The notes under the pieces are model-generated. The model searched no databases. It was given only the letters and a program-made list of their open reading frames with translations, and was not told the origin of the DNA. The translations under genes were made by a program, and so were the position numbers. Below, piece by piece: positions 6,102 through 64,000 of a stretch of 64,000 nt of DNA; position 1 is the first letter of the stretch, and each line of letters opens with the position of its first letter. The stretch is from an uncultured Planctomycetota bacterium (lineage in GTDB: Bacteria; Planctomycetota; Planctomycetia; Isosphaerales; Isosphaeraceae). Location: positions 163,960 to 227,959 of the forward strand of contig CAWJTV010000003.1 in NCBI GenBank assembly GCA_963845755.1. The letters run 5' to 3'.

Positions 6102-9100
6102 TCATCTCAGCCTCGGATCCTGAAACGGATCGCTGGGAAACTCGGCATCGAAGAGCACTGCCTCGGCCTCGCTGCGGAGGAGGGCCAGCTCCTGGAGGTC
6201 CCAGAAGGTTATCGACGAAGCGGGACGTAAAGTGCGGAGGCGTTCGAGCCACCGGCGGGCTTCGGCCAAGTTTCCCTTGCGGCGTGGGCCAGGGCCAGGT
6301 AGGCCCAATCGGTGGGGTAATCCTGGAACTTCGCCTCCGTCGCGGCGGCCGTTCCCTCGTTCAGTCGGGTGATCGCCTCATCGATCCGGCCGGCCCGGAT
6401 GAGCAGCGCCGCCAATGCGTTCGGAAAGTAGTAAGGGCGATAGATGGGGGGTGGCACGGGAACGTCGGCCCGCCGTTTCTCGAACCAGGCGATCGGGACG
6501 CGGTAATCGTCCAGGCCCTGGACGCCCAGGGCCAGGAGCGACCCTGCAAGCGTCGCGTCCCAGGCAACAATCGGGTCCGGCCACTGGCGGCTCCAGGACC
6601 GCCGCGCAGGCCTCGCGGTAGCCGGCGCGGTCGCCCGCCCTCAGGCAGGCGATGCCCCAGGCCTGGGCCAGCTCCCGGCTGAGTGGACCGACCCGGCCGC
6701 AGCGTGCCAGCAGGTCCGCGGCCTCGGCCCAGCGGCCGGCGCGGCCCATCTCCTCGGCCCGGGGAATGACGATTCCCTGATCGGCTCCCAGCTCGAAGGC
6801 GCGGGTGAGCTCGGCCTGTCGGTCGGCCTCGCGGCCGAGCTTGCCGTAGACCGCCGCACGTTCTTCATGCAGCGTCCAGTCATCGGGCCGGGCGGCGATC
6901 AGGCGGTCGAGGTACCAGAGGGCCTCGACCCACCGCTCGGCTGTGGTGCATTCGCTGGCGCAGTGAGCCTGGAAGTCCAGGACCTGCTCCCGCGAGCCCA
7001 GCCGCTCGGCCTGCTGGTAATCGGCGGCGGACTTGTCGAACTTGTCGGACAGGGACCACGCGCGGGCCCGGCGCGCGACCAGGAGCCAGTCGTCCGGCCC
7101 GGCGGCGATCAGGCGGTCGAGGTGCCAGATCGCCGCGAAGGCGTTGCCGTTCTGTTCGGCTTCGCGGATCATCGGCTCGTGCCAGGCGGGACCGTCATCG
7201 AGCTGCACGGCGGCGGGATCGAGGCGGCCGAGCTGCTCCAGCCGCTTGCGCCAGGCCGGGGCGTCGAGCCGCGAGATCGCCAGTCCCGACTCCATCCACA
7301 GGCCGGTCCGAGATTCGATTCGCAGGCCGATCCGGGCTTCGATTCGCAGGGTCAAGTCGTCGAGGTTCGAGTCCTGGAGCGGCTCGGGAATGGGCCAGGT
7401 GCGGGATTCCCCGAACTCGTCGATCGCGGCGACAGTCCGGCCATCGGCCGTGAATACGACCTGATGAACAGCATGTCTCATGAATCGCGGCGGGCCGACC
7501 GGCTGCGCCGTGGCCAGGTCGCAGAGCCGGACCGCGCCGTCGTCGAATCCCGCGGCGACGAGACCGCCATCGCGGCGAAACGCCGCACAGATGGCCGGCG
7601 ACGAAGCGGTCAGGAGCCTGGCGAGAACTTCTCCGGTCGCGGCATCGCGGAGCTTGACCGTGCCGTCCTTACCCAGTGTGAGGAAGGCACGACCGTCGGG
7701 ATGGAATCCTCCGGTGACCTCGTCAACCATCGGCTCTCCGAGCACCTGCCCTTTGGTCGTGTCCCACAGGCGCGTCAAGCGATTGCTGCCACTCGCAAGC
7801 AGGGCTCGACCATCCGGCCGGAATTCGAGTCGGGTGACATACTCCGTGCTGGGCAGTAGTTCTCCGAGGGGTTGACGCGTCCTGTTGTCCCAGAGCCGGG
7901 TACCAGTCTTGCCCTTCTCACTGGCGAGACCCACCGCGAGCATCGTGCCGTCCGGACTGTAAGCCAGGCACAGGACCATTTCTCCTTGAGGAAGCGGCCG
8001 GCCGATTTCCTTGCCGGTTGAGGTATCCCAGAACCGGACGAGTCCATCGTAGTCGCCCACGGCCACGACCTTGCCGTCGGGCTGGAAAGCCAGTGCCGCG
8101 ACCCAGTTGGTGTGCGGTATCGGCGGGAGCAAGAGCCGCCCCGTGCTCGCGTCCCAGAGTCGGAGCTCGCCTCCGTAGCGAGTCTCCGGATTACTCCCGG
8201 TCGCGAAACATCGGCCGTCGGGGCTGAAGGCGACCGCACGCACGATCCAGCCGGGGTAGTGCGGCGCGGGCCTTCCGGAGGGGCGATCGGTTGCGGGATC
8301 CGATAGTCGGATCACTTCCTGTCCCCCCGCACCATCGGCCAGCGAGACGGCGATCTGGCCATCGGCCCGCAGTAAACCTGACCGGAAAGCATTGAACCCA
8401 CGCCATCGGCGGTTGGCTACGCTCCCTGTCGGCGTTGCCTTCTTGTTGGTTCCTCCGTCGGCAAGCGGCTCCGCATCAACCGACACTTGCCACAACAGGG
8501 CGCTCTTGTCAAAGGTACTGCTAAGCACGGTACGACCGTCCGGATGCGAGGCGGTGAAAGCTCCAGCAAGAACCCTTGAGCCTCTCTCGCTCCCGGTGTC
8601 GGCATCACGAACGCAAGGCTTGAAGTCAATCTCTGACAGAAGACGATCACCCGCGGGTGTGTAAATGGCGCCATCGGGGACTGCCCCTGCCATGAGCGGA
8701 CTGGTCGGTCTTCCGGTGGCAGGGTCCCAGAACTGTCCGAAGCCGGTACTCTTGGAGCCATCGCCGACGACTTCTGAGATTGACCCGAACAGTGACCTCC
8801 CATCGGGCCTAAAGACCAGGGTCCCCGGTGCTTGCAGGCCGGTTCGCCAGGATGCCTGCCGCCGTCCCGAGGGCAGGTCGTACACATCGACGTACGCCTC
8901 GCCATTCTCGAGACGGCCGGTGGCGAACTTCCCGCCGTCGGGAGCAACCGCCATCCATCCCTGGCCTCGCATCGGCTCTTCGCGCTGCCGGTCGGCCCCG
9001 AAGTCCAGTCGAATTAACCCATAGCTGTTTGACCCGTAATCGCGGTCCGCAAAGAGCGTGGACCCGTCAGGACTGAAGTGAATCGCCCTCCCCGGCTCTG

Positions 9101-54532: not shown

Positions 54533-57212
54533 TCAGGTCGTAATCTCCGTCTGAACGGTCACGTCCTGCGAGATGGGTGTATAGATGTCCGTTTCGGGCG
54601 TCTCGATCGTCACGATGAGGCTGTATCGAGCCTTCCGGTCATGGCGCCCCAGGTGACGCCGCTCCTTCCACCAGCCGGTGACCGGATAGACCGCGATCAG
54701 GTTACAGCGTGCGAGGTCGATGGCCTGGCCCTCCCACCAATCCGAATGGAGGGAACCGTGCGTCCTGCCGTTGCTACCGATCACCCATTCGCGGGTCTCT
54801 TCGACGCTCTGCGGCCGGGCGTTGGGGTCATCCCACTCGGTTTTGGATATCCGCCCCGGGAACTCACTCACCGGTTCAAGCGGGCGGATGACGTCGAATC
54901 GGAGGCCGTGCGAGGCGTAGCGGTGGTTCTCTCCCCAGCCCACGTTGTTCGGGCTCGGCTCGATGAAATACGAGAGCGTCACGCGCATGCTCACCGAGGT
55001 CTCGCCGAGCTCTTCGAGAACTTCCTTCGGCCAGGGTAGCTCGTGCAGATGCATCTCGTACGTCTTGCACCCGGACGTCGTCCGGCAGAACGGCTGGATA
55101 TCGCCCTCATAGATCAACGTGGCTGCGTTCTCGGCGCTGCTCAAGGCTTTGTCGAGGTTCGGGACGCCATACCCGTAGCATCGCAGGCAGTCCTGTGCCA
55201 CGCTCTTCTGTTCGCCCGAATACCGCCTCCGCATCGCTGGCGTCCAGCTCGCCGAGTGGACCATGAGCCCGCGGACGGTCTCCGGGCGGAGCCGGGGGTA
55301 ACGGCTCCAGACCGTCGCCGCGAAGCGGGCCGCCAGCGCGGTGGCGGGGCTTGTATCCCGCGTCACCTCGAGGAGCCGACCCGAGGGGTGGAGGATGGTG
55401 GTCATCAGCGACAGGTCGTCGAGGTTCGATCGTTCGCCGCCCCGCTCTGCGTAGTTGCCGCCCTCCATCACGATGTCGGGCTTGATCGGCCAGCCCTTGC
55501 GGTTCTTATCGGGCCACGGGAGGGAGGTGCGGCTGGTCGGAGCGAGATCGCCGCTCTGGGCGATCGGCTGCCAGCCGTGAAAGCTCCGATCTTCGATGAA
55601 GACCTTCTCTGTGTAGGCCCCGACGGTGAGCGCGTTCCACGCCTGACCGGGATCCTCGACTCCGGCCCGCGTCGTATTCCAGATGTGGTACGTGTATTCG
55701 GCGGAGTAGAAATGCTCGGGCAGTACGTTGCCGGTGGAAACGAACATGAGTTTAGGAATTTCGTCGAGTACGCCTGCGCACATGTCGTCAACTGCGGCCG
55801 ACCAGGTGGTCGGCATCCCCATCTCCCGATCGTCGGTGGTCACCGCCATGCAGATGACGCGGTTCCGGCGGGGCGACTGGATCTGCGCGAGTGACACGGC
55901 GTCCTGCATCACCCGGCCGTAGACCGGGGGTTCGTTATGCCGCGGCGGCGGCGGGAGGATTTTCACCGATTCGAGGCGATGGCGCAGGACCACCGGCCCC
56001 GTGGCGGTCATCAGGCCCGTGAGGCAGCCGTAGAGGGCGATCCCGGCCATCCCCGTTCCGTGCTGCTCGCTGTCGTGGTCCGAGGTCCCCCAATCCGCCT
56101 CGACGGCCTGGACATCCTCGACGGCAAGGGCAGGCGTGAGCAGCGGGTGCGGCTGATTGACCCCGGCGTCGAGAATGCAAACGCTCGGCGCGTTCCTCCC
56201 CGGCGGGACGATGAGCCGGGCCGCGTCGTCAACGAAATCCCGCTGGTCACGAGCGGACATCGTCATGTAGGGGGTCGCGAGCTCCTTCGCCTTCCTGAGT
56301 TCGGCGATCATCGAGAGGAGATGGATCGACGATGAGAGCTGGCGGGCCGAAGCATAGGCATGAAGAACCAGCCGCTCGGGAAAGGAGACGTACCGGTCGC
56401 TCACGCGATTGATGCCGATTGCGCCCGCAAGGTCGGTGAAACGGTGAAAAACCTCGTTCGCATCCTGCCTGCTGCCGCGCAGCCAGACCTCCCACCAGAG
56501 CTCTTCGTCCAAGCGGGGGATAGGGCAGCGTGTCCTGCCAGAAGTCTTCGGTGATGGCGAGGCGGATCGTCGTGACGCTATCGATCAGCCTCTGATTCCT
56601 GCGGCTCGACAACACCAGCGTTCCCAGATTGCCGACGAGGCCGTTGAATCTCGGCACCGATGCCTCGGGAACCACGAATCTGAGCTTGCGCTTTCCGTCC
56701 TTCGTCTTGTAGACGGGCCCCCAGAACCGGAAGTTCTCGGTCTCGTCGTGCAGCGCCTTGAGCTTGTCCTCATTCGCGGGCTCGGCGATATAGGTCAGCA
56801 CAATGCTCGACGCGTAGGCGTTGACGATGCGGAGGAAGGTGGCCAGCTTCTTTTCCGGCACGAAAACCCGGGCCGATTGCGTTCCGCCTCGTTCCGTCAT
56901 GCCGAGGAGGTGGATTCCGCCGTGCCGTTCCAGGCCTTCGAGGCTGAGCGGATCGTTCGGCTCGCTCTCGAACGTGAGAACGAGACCTTCCGGCTTCCAC
57001 TCGACCAGTTCCGGGTGCGCTGCCTCGTCCTCACCCAACCGCCGCTTGGCCTCGGCCCCGGCCGATTCGAGCGCGGCCCTGACATCCCTTGCGTGGACCG
57101 GCTGATTTCTGGCGGGCAGGTCGAACGTGACACCCTGAGGGGCTGGGCCGGCATAGGTATAGGGGGACGATTTCGGCTCGCCCTCCAGCCGGAGGTGAGG
57201 CAGATCGCTCAT
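54533..57212 (-). CDS. ietS: S8 subtilase of an AAA-ATPase/protease (ietAS-like) system; frameshift near 56518
   Basis: ILDAG (D), QHGTGMAG (H), KPDIVMEGGN, DTSPATALAA (S), VTLSYFIEP and RYSLIVTI; WWEVWL in the N-terminal part. Confidence 0.85.
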
Positions 57213-57217
57213 TTCCG

Positions 57218-58213
57218 CTATTTCTTTCTTGGCCTGGCCGTCCTCATGCCGTCGCGATTGCTCAGGACCGTAGCGAGATCCTTCGTATGGATCGCCTTCA
57301 CGCCGGAGAGGACCGCGGTTCGGGCGGCATCATCGCAAGCCCTTGCCACCTCGGCATGGCTCAATCCACGAGCAGCGACGATGACATCCCTCCATTCTAT
57401 CCCGCCCAGGTCGAACGCGGTGAGGCGATTCTCGATAAGTTCGCGGATCTGCTCGCCGTCGGGCAGCTCGTAGGCGATCACGTCGTCGAAGCGCCGGAAC
57501 AGGGCATCGTCTAACATGTCCATGAAATTTGTGGCCGCGACGACGATGCTTTCTGAGTCGTCCCTCTCGAGGAATTGGAGGAAGGAGTTCAGGACGCGGC
57601 GGATCTCCCCGACGTCGTTGCCGGCCGATCGCATCGCCCCGATCGCGTCGAACTCATCGAAGAGATAGACGCCCCTGGTCTCGCCCATGGCGTCGAAAAC
57701 GTGGTGGAGCTTCGCCGCCGTCTCGCCCATGTACTTCGAGATCAGGCTATGCAACTGGACGAAGAGGAGCGGCAGGCGGCACTCGGCGGCGAGGACCGAA
57801 ACCGTCATCGTCTTGCCGCAACCGGGTGGCCCGACGAGCAGGAGCTTGCGCTTCGGCGCCAGCCCGTGCGCGCGCAGAACGTCACGTTGCCGCTGCTGCA
57901 GGATGATCTCCTCGATCCGCACTCGGACCGAATCCGACAGGACCATGTCGGCCAGTCGGGTCGAAGGATAGGATGCTAGCACGAGACCGGAAAGCTCGCC
58001 CGAAGGGCGGGCGATGGGCACCGCACGAGGGCTTCTTGCCGGCTGCTGGACTCGCCTGGCTTTGTCAACGAGATCGCGGATTTCTTTGGCCAGGCGTTCA
58101 TGGCCTTTGCTCGCCTGGTGCGCGGCGATCTGTAGGGCGACGGAACGGAAGAGATCGTCATCCCCTTCTGAATGGCTCTTGAGTAGCGCCTTGATTTGCT
58201 CTGCGGTAGCCAT
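57218..58213 (-). CDS. ietA: AAA+ ATPase of an ietAS-like system
   Basis: MATAEQIKALLKSH; Walker A GPPGCGKT; Walker B YLFDEFD; AATN; DDALFRRFDD; 5 bp upstream of the protease. Confidence 0.88.
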   Translation of the reverse strand: MATAEQIKALLKSHSEGDDDLFRSVALQIAAHQASKGHERLAKEIRDLVDKARRVQQPARSPRAVPIARPSGELSGLVLASYPSTRLADMVLSDSVRVRIEEIILQQRQRDVLRAHGLAPKRKLLLVGPPGCGKTMTVSVLAAECRLPLLFVQLHSLISKYMGETAAKLHHVFDAMGETRGVYLFDEFDAIGAMRSAGNDVGEIRRVLNSFLQFLERDDSESIVVAATNFMDMLDDALFRRFDDVIAYELPDGEQIRELIENRLTAFDLGGIEWRDVIVAARGLSHAEVARACDDAARTAVLSGVKAIHTKDLATVLSNRDGMRTARPRKK

Positions 58214-58598
58214 CACCCACCTCGCCCGTCTTTTCTAGCAGGATTCCTCTATACATTTTACCCATTTTTCCTGATCGCCATTGAGAATCCGGGTAAAAGC
58301 TTTCTAGATATTTGTTCAGTATATCCCTACAGCGACCGCTTCCCAAGCAAGAAATCCATTCTCCGCTGGCGAAGATGCTTACGAAAGGGGGCAACGACGT
58401 GCAGACACAGGCGGCCATCCTGGCGGCTGAACCGGGAGTCGCCTTATCGTCAAGATCGTCGAAATCGGAAATCCCTACCCGCGTCGGTCGTGATTGCCTG
58501 AGGACGCGGACGGTTCGCTATCTCAATCTCGCATCTCCCACCCGGAGATGCCTTGGTTTCCGCCCGGTCTGAACATCCCGGTAAGACGGCAGCGCGCT

Positions 58599-59010
58599 TG
58601 GTGGCTGGACAGGGTACGGCGTGATTGGCGCGTACGCCCACACCGCTCGGCACGCTGTAAAATGCGCGGAGTGGTGCCGGACCCAAGATGTGGCATGGCG
58701 AAGTTCGCCGCGGACGGGCCGGGCAGGCTTTCGACTTCGGTGAGCCGGGCGTGCTGGACGGGGCCACCGCCAAGTCGCTCGCCGCGGGCCGCCACGGGCC
58801 ACGACAGGTTGGCCAAATCGTCAAGACGAAGCCCCTCAGGCGGAGCTGCTGGCGGATTCTGGATCAGAGCCTGGAGCCCCGCGAGCCCGCTCTTCAAGCA
58901 ATCGGCCACTTGAGCAGCCCGGTACGATCACTGGGCTTTCTCAAGGGTGGGCTAGACAATCCACTTCCCCAGGTGGGAGGTCTTTCACAGGGAGGCCGTG
59001 CGACGGGCGT
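58599..59010 (+). ncRNA. Candidate structured non-coding element, copy A
   Basis: Collinear conserved blocks shared with 61123-61520; positionally conserved hairpins; no shared ORF. Confidence 0.5.
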
Positions 59011-59149
59011 TCCTCGGCATAACGGAGACTCTTGTCGCGAGATTCCCGAAATCGGACGGGGAATCAAGATCGAACAGCGCTGAAACCACCATGCATGGGT
59101 CCGGAGGTTCCGTTGAGAGGCGGGTGCATGATTGGAATCAGGTCGGTGC

Positions 59150-60067
59150 TTATTCGGTCAGGACGCCGAACCGGGTCCACGTCACGGCTGGCCAGTACCT
59201 GTACTGCACGTCGCCGAGCACGTCGCCAAGGGCCACGAAGCCCATCGTGCGGCTGTCGCGCGAATTGTTCCGGTTGTCGCCCAGCACGAAACACATCCCG
59301 TCCGGCACCTTCGCCTTGGGGTAGTCCGGTAACGGCTTCGTGTCGGTGGCGAAGAGAATCCGATAGCGGCGGCCGGCGTTGGTTTCCTCGAATAGTTCCC
59401 CCTTGACCACTTGCGCCGCGGCCCCGAGGCTCGCCCGCGGCGCCGGCTCGCGCGGCAACTGCTGCCCGTTGACGAACACCTCGTTGTCCTTCACCTCGAC
59501 GGTATCGCCGGGCAGCGCGATGACACGCTTGGCCCAGTTCAGCCCCGGCTCCGACGACACGCGAAACACCACCTCGTCGCCGCGGCGCACGAATCGCCTC
59601 TGGTACGTCGTTTTGTTCACCAGAAACCGATCACCGGGGAGCAACGTCGGCACCTCGCTGGCCGTCGGAATCGCAAAGGCCTCGAAGACGCTGCTGCGGA
59701 TGAAGTACAGCGCGCCGGCCGAGTACGTCAGTCCTACTAGGATGAATAGAGCGTAGACTAGCGGATGGTTGTAGTCCATTGACTGGAAGAGATCACGGCC
59801 GCGGCGGGCAAGGCGGAAGGCGTCCACGACCGCAAAGACATAGACCCCCAGCACTGTCAGCAACGCGAGGATCAGGCCGACCAGAACAACGGTCGCGGGT
59901 GGCAACAGGGCGGCCACCACGGTCGCCGGCGCGAACAGCAGCGAGCTGAGGAACATCACCAGGCCGCGGACGATACGGCCGCAGTAAATCTGGCCTAGTC
60001 CGGTGGCGGCAAGCGATAGAATCACGGCGATCAGCGGACTGCGGGCGGGAGCGTTTGGGGTGCTCAA
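59150..60067 (-). CDS. lepB: Signal peptidase I with extra N-terminal TM helices
   Basis: IPTASEVPTLLPGD (Ser), AKRVIALPGD (Lys), GDNRNNSRDSR. Confidence 0.9.
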   Translation of the reverse strand: MSTPNAPARSPLIAVILSLAATGLGQIYCGRIVRGLVMFLSSLLFAPATVVAALLPPATVVLVGLILALLTVLGVYVFAVVDAFRLARRGRDLFQSMDYNHPLVYALFILVGLTYSAGALYFIRSSVFEAFAIPTASEVPTLLPGDRFLVNKTTYQRRFVRRGDEVVFRVSSEPGLNWAKRVIALPGDTVEVKDNEVFVNGQQLPREPAPRASLGAAAQVVKGELFEETNAGRRYRILFATDTKPLPDYPKAKVPDGMCFVLGDNRNNSRDSRTMGFVALGDVLGDVQYRYWPAVTWTRFGVLTE

Positions 60068-60092
60068 GAGAAAACCTCATTATTCACGGAGT

Positions 60093-60323
60093 TCACTGGA
60101 CGAAAAAGACCGCAACAACGGCCACCATGCGGTACAGGCAGGCGAGGCACGCCAGGATGCAGGCGGCGACGCGCACGGCGGGTGAGGACTGCAGCAGGAC
60201 CAGGACGCCCTTCGAGGACGGCAGCGGTTCTCGGCGGACGGCGTCCATGACGCGGTCAGCGAAGTCAGCGGGCGCCTCGGCATCAGCCCGTTGTATCCAC
60301 AGGTTGTAAAGTTCGTCGTTCAT
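60093..60323 (-). CDS. Putative small single-TM anti-sigma factor
   Basis: 76 aa; ATGA overlap with the sigma stop; APADFADRVM motif followed by a hydrophobic C-terminus. Confidence 0.65.
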   Translation of the reverse strand: MNDELYNLWIQRADAEAPADFADRVMDAVRREPLPSSKGVLVLLQSSPAVRVAACILACLACLYRMVAVVAVFFVQ

Positions 60324-60862
60324 GAGTGCGGCTCGGCGGCGTGACGGAGGAGACAGCGAAGTTTCTCACGGGCCCTGGCGATTCGCGACTTCACAGTGCC
60401 CACGCCGACGCCCTCGATCCGACCGACCTCCTCGTAGGAAAGACCTTGCAGATGCGCGAGCACGAAGGCGGAACGCTGCTCGAACGGCAGGGCGTCGAGG
60501 GCCGCGTCGAGCTGGCGGAATAGTTCCGCTTCCGAGGCCGCCCGCTCGGGCGACCGCAGATCGACGACGTCCGGCAGTTCGGCGCCCACGACCGGCCGCC
60601 GGCGGGCGAGTTCGTTGCGGCAGCGGTTGCGGGCGATGGTGAACAGCCAGGTCGAGAATGCCGACCGCCTTGGGTCGAACGATGCCAGGCAGCGGAACGC
60701 GGCCAGGAACACCTCCTGGGCGACTCCCTCGTGGTCGGTGTCGGGCGGCGTCAGCTTGCGGACCAGTGTCAACAGCGGCCGCTGGTAGCGCTCCACGATG
60801 CGGCGGAACGACTCGACGTCTGCCGCCAGCACCCGCCGGATCGCATCGAGGTCATCGTTCAT
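60320..60862 (-). CDS. ECF sigma-70 factor
   Basis: AQEVFLAAF, FSTWLFTIARNRC, GTVKSRIARAREKL; ATG at 60862. Confidence 0.93.
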   Translation of the reverse strand: MNDDLDAIRRVLAADVESFRRIVERYQRPLLTLVRKLTPPDTDHEGVAQEVFLAAFRCLASFDPRRSAFSTWLFTIARNRCRNELARRRPVVGAELPDVVDLRSPERAASEAELFRQLDAALDALPFEQRSAFVLAHLQGLSYEEVGRIEGVGVGTVKSRIARAREKLRCLLRHAAEPHS

Positions 60863-60900
60863 GGCGCCCTGCCCTGCGGCACTGAAATCACGCTGAGAGG

Positions 60901-60928
60901 TTATACAGCCGGGCCCGGAAAAAGTTCC
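60901..60928 (-). promoter_or_regulatory. Autoregulatory ECF promoter GGAACT-N16-GTATAA
   Basis: Classic ECF -35 AAC / -10 GT arrangement about 40 bp upstream of the sigma start. Confidence 0.65.
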
Positions 60929-61122
60929 CCCGGCCTCGAGGGGCCCCGAAGCATCCACAAATGACTTAACCACTCGGTCGTAGGAGGTTACGTTGCACGC
61001 GCTGGTTCGACACGCCACGGGCGTGGGAACAGACCAAGGACTCTGCCGGCGGCCCGGGATCATCGAAAGTGCGGCAGAACCGGATTCGGAGCCAGTTTCG
61101 ATCGTGAAGCCGGAGCCACCTG

Positions 61123-61885
61123 TGGCGGCTGGACAAGGTTCAGGAAGCCAGGCGCGTACAACCACACCGCTCGGCACGCAGTGGAGTGGCGGAGTGACGT
61201 GGGGCGCGGGATGTGGCGTGGCGGCATGTCACCGATCGGTTCCGGGGCACGGACGAGGCCGGTGAAGGGTGTCGTCGTGGGCTGGGCCACCGCCGAGTCG
61301 CCCGCCGCAGGCTGCGGTGCTGGCCGCGACAGGATGACCCGCGTGCTCAGTCGAAGCTCGTAGGTAAGCCGCTGGCGGCGCTGGATCAGGGCCTGGGGCC
61401 GTGATGAGCCTGTTACGGACGATCCGGCCGCTTGAGCAGGCGACTATCCGCTCAAGGGTGGGCCGGACATCCCAGCCGTTCACGACGGCTGCTTTCACTG
61501 TGCTCGTTCGCGCGGGTGCCGGCTCGAGACCGGATCGACGACGCCACGTGCTGGGCGAGTCGGACGGCTCGCTTCACATCGCTGGCTCCTTTGAGAAGAC
61601 GCGCTGCCCGTGGTTCCTCAGTCCATCGAACAAGGCCCTGGCCACAGCGCCGTTCCCTTCGGGATGGTCGGCCGTTTTCCTGAAGCCCCAGATTTCGTGC
61701 TCAAGCCGAAAGGTCGGGCTTTCCGACGGCTAAGGACCATGTTCAACGACGTCTGGGCCGCGCTTGTTGATGAGCCGATGTCCCAGCTCCACGGGTGCGC
61801 AACACGGCTCTTGAAGTTGCTCGGTCCAGAATAACACCCGGGCACATGGGCATAAGGCGTTGCCAGAGCAAAATGGCGCTTAGCG
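61123..61885 (+). ncRNA. Candidate structured non-coding element, copy B (homology to about 61520; hairpin-rich extension to about 61885)
   Basis: See copy A; further hairpins at 61650-61667, 61704-61731, 61772-61810 and 61818-61844. Confidence 0.5.
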
Positions 61886-61889
61886 GAGC

Positions 61890-61982
61890 GTGATGATCGA
61901 AGACTGCGGTCACTACCTCGCCGAGGAGCGGCCGGACCGGCTTCTCGACGAGTTGTTGCGGTTCTTTAAGGAAGCGACCTGA
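61890..61982 (+). pseudogene. C-terminal remnant of an alpha/beta hydrolase
   Basis: VMIEDCGHYLAEERPDRLLDELLRFF*, a catalytic-His motif with no upstream body. Confidence 0.65.
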
Positions 61983-62146
61983 CCGACAAGAGCTGAGGCG
62001 TGCCGGCAAGAACCGCAGTCGGAATACAATGACGAAGAGATAGGACATGAAGACATCCTGCCATCCTTTCGCGCATGATTGGCAGATTGTCGCCATGCAA
62101 CAGGCTGTTTTTCATTCCCGTCCCGTCTTTCTCCAAAGAAATGTCC

Positions 62147-63575
62147 CTAGACCGACAATCCTCAATTGAGACACCAACAGGTCTGATGACCCGGCTAGAA
62201 TTACCCGGATTCGCTAGCTTCGCAACCACCAGGGAGGCTCTCGCCATGCCGGGCAAGACGGCCAAGGTCACCATCACCGAACGTCAACACGATCTCCTGG
62301 AGACGATCCACAAGGCCCCCACCGCCTCGTCTCAACTCCGCCAGCGTGCGGCCATCATCCTCTGGGCCTTCCAGAAGCGGGACAACGCGGAGATCGCCGC
62401 CGCAGATCGGGCTGTCGCGGCGGCAGGTCAGCACCTGGCGACGACGTTGGGCCGATGCCTGGGAGCGGCTCATCCGCATCGAGCGCACCGAGACCTACGC
62501 CGCGTTGCCGCCGGGCCGTCGAGCAGGTCCTCCGCGACGAGCCCCGCGCCGGCTCCTCCGGCAAGTTCACTCCCGAGCAGGTCGTGGCGATCCTGGCACT
62601 GGGCCTGCGAGCCCCCGGAGAAGTCCGGCCGGCCGATCACTCACTGGACGGCCAAGGAGTTGGCCGACGAGGCCATCAAGCGCGGCATCGTGCCCTCGAT
62701 CTCGGTCACTCAAGTGGGTCGCTATCTCCGCGAGGCCGCCTTGCAGCCGCACAAGAAGCGGTATTGGCTCAACACCCGCGAGAAAGATCCGGTGGTCTTT
62801 GCGGGGCGGGTCCAGGCGGTCTGTGACACCTACCAGGAGGTGCCGGCCCTGGCGAGGGACCAGGGGACGCACACCGTCAGCACCGATGAGATGACCGGGT
62901 TGCAAGCGCTGGAGCGGAGTGCCCCCGATCAGCCGATGACCTACGGGAGGCCCGAGCGGATCGAGGCCGAATATACGCGGCATGGGACGCTGACTCTGAT
63001 CGGCAACTTCGACGTGACGACCGGCGAGTTGATCACCCCCACGATCGGCCCGACGCGGACGGAGTTGGATTTCGTCGAACACATCGCGCACACGGTGGCG
63101 ACCGACCCGGAGGCGGGGTGGATCTTCGTGGTGGATAATTTGAACATCCATGGCTCGGAGATGCTGGTGCGGTTGGTGGCCAAGGCGTGCGGGATCGCGG
63201 AGCCGTTGGGGAGGAAGAACGTGTCGCGGGATCCTCGAAGTCGGTGGCCAGCCGGCAAGCGTTCCTGTCGGAGAAGGGCCACCGGATCCGGTTCGTGTAC
63301 ACGCCGAAGCACAGTTCGTGGCTGAACCAGATCGAGACGGTCTTCGGAGTAATCATGAGGAAGGTGATTCGGCGCGGCTCGTTCAGTTCGGTGGACGACC
63401 TGCAGAGCAAGCTGTGGAACTTCATCGCGTATTTCAATCGGGTGTTTGCCAAGCCGTTCCACTGGACCTACACCGGTCGCCCGCTGCGGGTGAAGGTGGC
63501 GTGAAAAGAGGCAAAGGACCAAGGATGGAGAAGCCACCTTGCTCATGCTCACTCAATTGAGGATTGTCGGTCTAG
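62147..63575 (+). mobile_element. IS630-family insertion sequence
   Basis: Perfect 24-bp inverted ends CTAGACCGACAATCCTCAATTGAG (62147-62170 / 63552-63575), including the CTAG target. Confidence 0.92.
62246..63504 (+). CDS. IS630-family transposase (several frameshifts)
   Basis: STDEMTG, EYTRHGT, VVDNLNIH and YTPKHSSWLNQIE motifs. Confidence 0.88.
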
Positions 63576-64000
63576 CCTGGATTCCCATGGAGGCAGATTG
63601 GGCTAACATTTGTTGCCGCATGATTGGAAAAAAGCCCGCGATACTCAGCTTTTCGCCTCGGAACTGGTTATGCTCCTCCAAGAGTTAAAGGTGGGTCTCC
63701 CACTAAGTTAACTTGATCACCATGGATGATATGTTCGTCGATCGAATCTCACTTCCTCCTGGAAAACAAGGGGTTCTTGCGACAAATCTATCGAATTCAC
63801 CACAGTGGATGCATTGAGTTGACACCGTGGATGCTCTTTTTTTCAGTTTACGGATCACCTAACATCGAGAGAGGCGTTTCGATGAGCCGTTTCAAGCCAG
63901 AACCACTTGAAATCCAGGGGAAAACCCACTTCGACGAATTTTGCTTCGTTTATGGATTGCGTCTTAGCCTACCCCGTTTTTGCCTCCATGGGAATCCAGG
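63576..64000. mobile_element. Putative MITE / non-autonomous element
   Basis: Perfect 20-bp inverted repeat CCTGGATTCCCATGGAGGCA (63576-63595 / 63981-64000) around an AT-rich interior with no transposase. Confidence 0.7.

Follow-up and report, generated by a model that had tools for sequence, protein, structure and literature searches.

What are the two diverged direct repeats, A and B, that lie near the end of a 64,000-nucleotide (nt) stretch of DNA from an uncultured Planctomycetota bacterium of the family Isosphaeraceae, and do they encode a structured RNA? The stretch, which is referred to below as the window, corresponds to C3:163960-227959 (contig CAWJTV010000003.1) of an assembly of 14.27 Mb in 49 contigs (GCA_963845755.1). 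The initial annotation had read the repeats as two copies of an independent plus-strand non-coding RNA of about 400 nt. We found that A and B are the decayed right ends of insertion sequences (IS) of the IS21 family, that is, transposon scars and not a pair of genes. Comparative analysis additionally supports a conserved, RNA-type structure in a 197-nt core of these ends, which is located on the strand that is sense to istB, the gene of the IstB helper ATPase.

The repeats as right ends of IS21-family insertion sequences

Repeats A and B are about 70% identical and stand in direct orientation. A repeat search of the window recovered the collinear blocks that had been reported at this locus, namely 58599-58658/61123-61182 (60 nt, 78%), 58750-58792/61273-61315 (43 nt, 81%), 58859-58878/61381-61400 (20 nt, 90%) and 58940-58963/61451-61474 (24 nt, 83%), at offsets of 2511-2524 nt, and a BLAST comparison of A with the whole genome returned B at 69% identity over 280 nt (query 10-289, E 5e-16). 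While the blocks were confirmed, the limits of the repeat proved to be wider than first described, with A starting at 58584 and B at about 61070, where the terminus of an IS is located.

The identity of the repeats became apparent from their relatives in the same genome. Using nhmmer, 13 related places were found. Besides A and B themselves (2.6e-143 and 1e-121, respectively), these comprise the near-identical A' and B' on contig C4, types C and D with two copies apiece, and five places at which the copy is partial. In types C and D, the repeat directly follows an IstB_IS21 gene (Pfam E 4e-71), which is preceded by a gene that carries the rve and Mu-transposase C-terminal (Mu-transpos_C_2) domains of Pfam; overall, the repeat was found directly 3' of istB in four of eight copies in the genome. 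The IstB proteins scored 246.4 and 234.1 bits against the NCBIfam model NF038214 (cut-off 200), and the IstA protein of type D (L063:7240-8388) scored 163.6 bits against NF033546 (cut-off 160); that of a type-C copy (L062) stayed below this cut-off at 109.6 bits. The two type-C insertions share 99.4% identity over 4078 nt, and the two of type D share 99.95% over 4145 nt. Because each type occurs twice in unrelated flanks, the boundaries of the elements are fixed. Their termini are imperfect inverted repeats of ~50 nt, starting TGGGACCGATC/TGATACCGATC, within which GAGCCAC motifs are repeated, and the flanks carry target duplications of 5-6 bp (CTCTTG and ACACC), the two insertion sites having no motif in common. 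The full-length relatives therefore show what is expected of IS21 elements, i.e., the IstB helper ATPase, the upstream IstA DDE transposase, and terminal repeats with a target duplication. Based on the istA and istB matches, the terminal repeats, the duplications and the boundaries in these relatives, we identify the repeat as the non-coding DNA at the right end of IS21-family insertion sequences of 4.1 kb, where it fills the interval between the istB stop codon and the right terminus. It is not a gene for an independent 400-nt non-coding RNA, and the window holds two decayed copies of it.

The strand that the initial annotation had favoured, the plus strand of the window, is antisense to istB. 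Read on the sense strand (window minus), the element opens with its left terminal repeat, from which about 600 nt lead to an extra open reading frame (ORF) and then to istA and istB. A spacer of about 80-100 nt separates istB from the 197-nt core, and the last 215 nt or so, within which the ~50-nt right terminal repeat lies, evolve fast. The gene pair and its order, the matches to curated models, the terminal inverted repeats with repeated inner motifs, the short target duplications and the spread in multiple copies are all shared with the IS21 family (IstA DDE transposase plus IstB AAA+ helper). Classical IS21 members are about 2-2.7 kb long and have short ends, whereas the present elements measure 4.1 kb, with a non-coding right end of about 470 nt, a left end of about 600 nt and the extra ORF. 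The latter lies upstream of istA (L062:3069-3782, plus; L063:8747-9358, minus), and its products of 238 and 204 amino acids are 47% identical and best conserved in the C-terminal ~90 residues. No family was assigned to the product by Pfam or NCBIfam; it may serve the element by binding DNA or RNA as an accessory protein. One of the type-C insertions splits an S1/P1 nuclease gene (L062 1932-2468 and ~6569-6838), near which a TIR-domain gene is located (L062 50-754).

Neither A nor B has both ends together with istAB, and both are fragments of IS21 members that are not self-mobile. Copy A is cut at both ends: it is devoid of the outermost ~33 nt of the terminal repeat, which are kept in the 97% identical copy on C4, and its inner edge stops about 50 nt short of the position of the istB stop, which leaves a solo fragment with no istB. 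In copy B, the terminal repeat is intact, with TG at 61070 and repeated GAGCCA(G/C) motifs, and no istB was recognisable using Pfam, NCBIfam or BLASTP. The tail that adjoins copy B is shared with truncated copies of ~850 nt elsewhere and is 72-94% identical at the nucleotide level to those in other genomes, with reading frames that are not kept. It had no match among the Pfam or NCBIfam models, and a collinear but weak BLASTP match to the C-terminus of IstB (E 0.11) suggests that it may be a decayed 3' remnant of istB. An inverted left end was looked for at the inner edge of this truncated class and none was found. Among 80 copies of the family, a full-length IstB (at least 200 amino acids) was present directly upstream in 11 and a partial one in six (78-187 amino acids, one being limited by the contig end), while three retained just 29-37 amino acids and 60 had no IstB upstream at E 1e-3 or better. 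Most copies are thus relics or belong to nested elements; A and B would likewise be relics, which need not be active. In one genome (G026; L073 1500-2810 and L149; contigs C103, C5, C6 and C3), an identically oriented type-B right end lies ~830 nt beyond a type-D right end that retains only the last ~86 amino acids of istB. This arrangement recurs at four loci, as if a nested or composite IS were moving as one unit.

The structured core and its strand

Constraint is unevenly distributed over the right end. Among 11 full-length copies, 46 diverged pairs (IstB identity <90%) were compared, and the mean identity was 0.77 in the 197-nt core, 0.90 at codon positions 1+2 of istB, 0.67 at codon position 3 and 0.52 in the remaining 330 nt to the terminus. 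The core, whose end lies 215 nt inside the right terminus, is an island of constraint in a fast-evolving transposon end. In its modelled fold, a CCACC/GGUGG stem closes the structure, CUUGAG...CUCAAG forms a side hairpin whose GC-rich inner hairpin is variable and is shortened in copy B, and a long interrupted stem carries a variable apical hairpin at its tip. The internal loops contain the most conserved bases, while the apical parts vary with their pairing kept, and the single-sequence minimum free energy folds of A and B give the same architecture as the model.

Compensatory changes were counted in 39 representatives (<93% identity), which were obtained from 45 long matches among 54 nhmmer matches and aligned on both strands, and the fold was captured in a covariance model, R1, with 197 positions and 54 pairs. 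In the sequence-only alignment of the core, 94.3% of the cells were paired and 18 of the 54 pairs had double changes, with 57 double-change cells compared to 17.6 ± 4.2 after shuffling (a count reached in 0/500 shuffles). When 79 distinct copies were aligned to R1, 91.0% of the cells were paired and double changes affected 38 of the 54 pairs, in 194 cells versus 77.2 ± 8.0 (again 0/500). Examples from the R1 alignment are pairs that occur as GC 39/AU 24/GU 9, as CG 47/UA 16 and as AU 24/CG 19/GU 16/GC 7. In the main domain, G.U cells outnumbered A.C cells on the minus strand by 281 to 34 in the sequence-only alignment, and by 524:147 in a second count; because G.U pairs are frequent on the minus strand, the core fold cannot form on the plus strand. 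A strand-agnostic scan for helices that permitted both G.U and A.C pairs returned many spurious helices and was discarded.

RNAalifold gave similar consensus energies of -39.0 kcal/mol for the minus and -34.2 kcal/mol for the plus strand, with structures that differ between the strands. In the minus structure, 96.0% of the cells were paired and 15 pairs had double changes, which exceeded 500 of 500 shuffles. Since such structures are chosen from the same alignments in which the pairs are then counted, pair counts cannot separate the strands, and the z-score of RNAalifold energies against column shuffles (without ribosum scoring) was used in their place. For the 39 representatives, the core had an energy of -38.4 on the sense strand compared to -19.0 ± 3.5 in the null (best of 100 nulls -27.0), i.e., a z of -5.56, whereas the z of the antisense strand was -1.30. 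A coarser scan over the core gave -4.40 for the sense and -1.04 for the antisense strand, and 18 control windows of 200 columns in the istB coding sequence of the same loci, taken per istB class, ranged from -2.19 to +1.47. A conserved fold with compensatory changes beyond the controls, as is expected of structured RNAs in general, is supported by this comparison on the istB sense strand. The covarying structure that had been proposed for the locus was therefore upheld (z -5.56, 38/54 pairs), although over only about 197 of the 400 nt, and its assignment to the plus strand was reversed.

The individual hairpins described previously fared differently. The CTTGAG/CTCAAG stem corresponds to the side hairpin of the core and covaries among the 39 representatives (UA in 28, CG in nine and UG in two). 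The 19-nt hairpin before CTTTCAC, with -9.1 kcal/mol in A and -11.6 kcal/mol in B, is not a feature of the family: on the plus strand it was not formed in 13 of the 39 relatives and reached -4 kcal/mol in 15. The G-U wobbles, which had been placed on the plus strand, do fall there in the CAC-a-CCGC/GCGG-a-GTG helix (34 G.T versus 7 A.C cells) but not in the main domain. This small helix lies outside the core near the terminus and is paired at its six positions in 31-38 of the 39 sequences. Its variation is almost one-sided and its z is weak (-1.92 plus, +0.86 minus). The helix leans towards the plus strand and may belong to an inward-reading antisense RNA.

A search of the whole window against Rfam 15, whose models include group II introns, HEARO, ROOL, GOLLD and transposon-linked motifs, returned no matches at the gathering score, and at E up to 10 the region 58200-61900 yielded just four chance-level matches (E 3-10). 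The candidate RNA family lies outside Rfam, as had been suspected. R1 found eight copies in the source genome. Within the host family it matched 26 of 121 genomes, and a sample of 150 genomes from elsewhere in the phylum gave no match; using BLAST, the right end was found in 30 of the 121 family genomes, often in several copies. Many of the IS copies are more than 85% identical, which indicates recent spread. When 185,579 species, each represented by one genome, were scanned for an exact pattern, 57 stretches were obtained, of which 48 belong by record title to Planctomycetota lineages, mostly Isosphaeraceae, and nine to other phyla. The latter mostly lie on short contigs or near contig ends and may reflect either mis-binning or horizontal transfer. 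R1 confirmed 17 of the 18 scan loci that were tested (28-225 bits, GC 0.64-0.70); the one with no match was titled Myxococcales.

Role of the core and competing explanations

It is probable that the core of these IS21 right ends is an RNA-level element of the sense strand that is transcribed together with istAB and acts in cis. The core would form the 3' untranslated end of the istAB message, as is suggested by the fact that no separate promoter was found, and would serve the element, for example, by protecting the transcript or terminating it before read-out through the right terminus. Alternatively, it may act in cis as a platform to which IstA, IstB or a host protein binds; the conserved internal loops and junctions together with variable apices suggest a binding platform over a simple terminator. 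A guide-like role is not indicated because, in a limited test, no complementarity of at least 10 nt was found between the core and the 120 nt of either IS end on either strand. The longest matches between them were 8-9 nt and were not common to both element types, and a repeat search within an intact element gave nothing beyond 8-9 nt.

Several results weigh against a sense-strand RNA that acts in this way. The structure of the core was derived from the same alignments that were used for counting, and the 79-copy alignment (A5) was fitted to R1. The different structure that RNAalifold gave for the plus strand scored nearly the same in pair counts as that of the minus strand (94.4% paired, 20 double-change pairs, 51 cells, 0/500 shuffles), and the small hairpin nearer the terminus favours the plus strand. 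The single-sequence z-scores were ordinary for both A (-1.19 minus, -1.20 plus) and B (-2.26 minus, -1.13 plus). A sequence-only alignment of 59 more diverged copies had a consensus energy of only -6.2, and the z of this extended set was -3.59 for the sense and +0.19 for the antisense strand; such scores are unstable near zero energy, as illustrated by values of -8.4 and -9.5 at an energy of -8.3 in a coding control with a 52%-identity alignment. A scan of an intact right end (L061 5600-6700) returned no sigma-70-type promoters and no intrinsic terminators, and a U run of at least six after the inner hairpin was present in just two of the 39 representatives. As for expression, 20 sequencing runs had sampled-word shares of 0.05-0.22, and the contigs of four metatranscriptomes were mapped. 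These mainly cover the operon between the repeats (59029-60924), while those over the elements themselves are few, short and unstranded (e.g., 58644-58833 and 61189-61543), and DNA carry-over is possible. Moreover, five of the nine IstB genes above the cut-off in the source genome belong to IS21 elements that do not have the core. IS21 transposition in general therefore does not need the core, which is a lineage-specific addition.

The core could instead be conserved as DNA, as subterminal sites that bind IstA, IstB or a host factor and so give the transposition complex its shape, with the fold as a by-product of palindromic sites. Its position inside a transposon end with repeated GAGCCAC motifs at the termini would fit such a role, and IstA recognises the ends of IS21, for which structural work has used a right terminal repeat of 55 bp (PMC12486865). 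The core ends, however, 215 nt from the terminus, far past the ~50-nt repeat, and it is the pairing rather than the sequence that is conserved (double changes in 38 of 54 pairs). A duplex DNA site would not yield conserved pairing together with a fold signal on one strand (z -5.56 versus -1.30) and an excess of G.U over A.C, and we regard this explanation as unlikely. An RNA of the plus strand, whether structured and about 400 nt long or an antisense transcript that begins at the right terminus and represses istB by reading into it, would account for the wobbles and z of the small CACaCCGC/GCGGaGTG hairpin, for z-scores of -2.88 and -3.57 in the plus-strand window nearest istB, and for the compensatory pairs being as many in the plus structure as in the minus one. 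The signal near istB, however, comes from those same closing and side stems seen in mirror image, the core itself reached only -1.30 or -1.04 on the plus strand and the hairpin before CTTTCAC is missing in a third of the relatives (13/39), which makes an RNA of this orientation rather improbable.

A decayed or very small protein gene, either a third IS gene that became a pseudogene or a micro-ORF, could have left the weak local 3-periodicity of column entropy that was seen over about 50 nt of the 39-sequence alignment (columns 275-326: 0.75/0.38/0.31) and the pair of -1/+1 indels, 28 nt apart, in one clade. Elsewhere in that alignment, the entropy had no phase. The mismatches between A and B showed no 3-periodicity, tblastx scores were alike across the six frames, and the GC frame contrast was 0.03-0.33 within the repeats compared to 0.4-0.55 in neighbouring genes. 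Indels of 1 nt were frequent, also within conserved stretches, the frames of the tail were not kept between copies, none of the six ORFs that overlap the repeats matched Pfam, and the overlapping ORFs of the region had no match in Pfam or NCBIfam. A coding origin is thus extremely unlikely, in agreement with the initial annotation, which had found no ORF common to both copies. Recent IS spread, with many copies more than 85% identical, could also give neutral sequence an appearance of conservation, but in the same pairs of copies the core was better conserved (0.77) than either third positions of istB (0.67) or the adjoining non-coding sequence (0.52), and an absence of function is very unlikely. 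Finally, the IS21 lineage might carry a structured RNA of its own that takes part in transposition, for example as a cofactor of IstA, IstB or the product of the extra ORF, or by directing the site or the timing of movement; we hold this to be doubtful.

Compared with known systems, the core is similar to the omega RNAs of TnpB and IscB (IS200/IS605, IS607) in its sense orientation and its position downstream of the last gene at the right end. Unlike in those systems, the element encodes neither TnpB nor IscB, and its genes are istA, istB and one ORF with no family; the core stops 215 nt short of the IS boundary and does not run across it, it has no complementarity of at least 10 nt to the ends, and it has no Rfam match. 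A non-coding RNA in a non-coding IS end is also described (PMC11208158, PMC12288879) for the bridge RNA or seekRNA of IS110/IS1111 and for the small RNA Ssr9 of ISPpu9. The transposase of the present elements, however, is a DDE IstA and not a DEDD/IS110 recombinase, no loops complementary to the donor ends were found, and the insertion sites (CTCTTG, ACACC) share no motif. The location of the core on the sense strand, immediately 3' of the last gene, and the U run that follows the GC-rich inner hairpin in two of the 39 representatives, resemble REP-like 3' untranslated stabilisers or terminators that act in cis. The core is much larger than REP-like structures (197 nt, 54 pairs and conserved internal loops), and, unlike terminators, most of its copies have no U tract, and no terminator was called in the scan of the intact right end.

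A literature search, with subscription journals and ISfinder outside its reach, found no link of an RNA element or non-coding RNA to IS21, istB or the host group. Judged from the comparative data, the core would be a structured RNA encoded by an IS end in a transposon family with none on record in the literature searched. RNAs from IS ends (omega, bridge) were recently found to be central to IS movement and are now used as genome-editing tools, and IS21 is among the best-studied families of DDE transposons. Were the core to take part in transposition, IS21-like elements would join IS200/IS605/IS607 and IS110 as insertion sequences that have an RNA partner; were it a mere 3' untranslated stabiliser, it would be an ordinary regulatory add-on. 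Because the core is conserved, covarying and confined to one IS21 sub-lineage, it offers a concrete and cheap test of whether IS21 uses RNA.

Feature coordinates and the neighbourhood of the repeats

Table 1. Elements of the two repeats, with positions in the window
Feature	Positions	Strand	Evidence
Copy A, IS21-family right-end fragment, both ends cut	58584..59010	-	nhmmer; alignment to full-length elements; C3/C4 comparison
Structured core, copy A	58760..58955	-	Covariance model R1, 192.1 bits, E 1.8e-40; 49/54 pairs formed
Small hairpin CACaCCGC/GCGGaGTG, copy A	58639..58673	+	Wobble pattern; alifold z
Copy B, IS21-family right end, terminal repeat intact	61070..61547	-	nhmmer; alignment to termini of elements with target duplications
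Structured core, copy B	61283..61466	-	R1, 130.4 bits, E 7.9e-27; 43/54 pairs formed, 7 gapped, 4 mismatched
Small hairpin CACaCCGC/GCGGaGTG, copy B	61163..61197	+	Wobble pattern
Copy B tail, possible decayed istB 3' remnant	61548..61868	-	blastn of the L088 locus against the window; common to ~850-nt truncated copies elsewhere

Beside copy A, the minus strand carries an AAA ATPase gene (57218-58216) and a subtilase S8 gene (54533-56512) with an ORF of no assignment between them (54533-58216 in all). The initial annotation had placed the repeats in a defence neighbourhood, and no link between the ATPase/subtilase pair and the repeats was found.

Between the repeats, also on the minus strand (59150-60862), lie an ECF sigma factor gene (60320-60862), a small ORF (60093-60323) and a signal peptidase S26 gene (59150-60067). 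This segment is flanked by A and B in direct orientation, and the whole of it is duplicated on C4, with the boundary at the terminal repeat of A; the sigma factor/peptidase operon may be a passenger that was captured by an IS21-derived composite. Metatranscriptome contigs from soil, moss and rhizosphere mainly cover this operon.

Beyond copy B, a further insertion sequence (62147-63575) with perfect 24-bp terminal inverted repeats carries a DDE_3 transposase (ORF 62075-63325, Pfam E 3e-10). Because the 97% identical segment of C4 does not have this IS, C4 keeps its empty site. The window ends with a 425-bp unit (63576-64000) that has perfect 20-nt inverted repeats and further copies at C4 48752-49179 and C4 60934-61361, and that looks like a miniature non-autonomous element.

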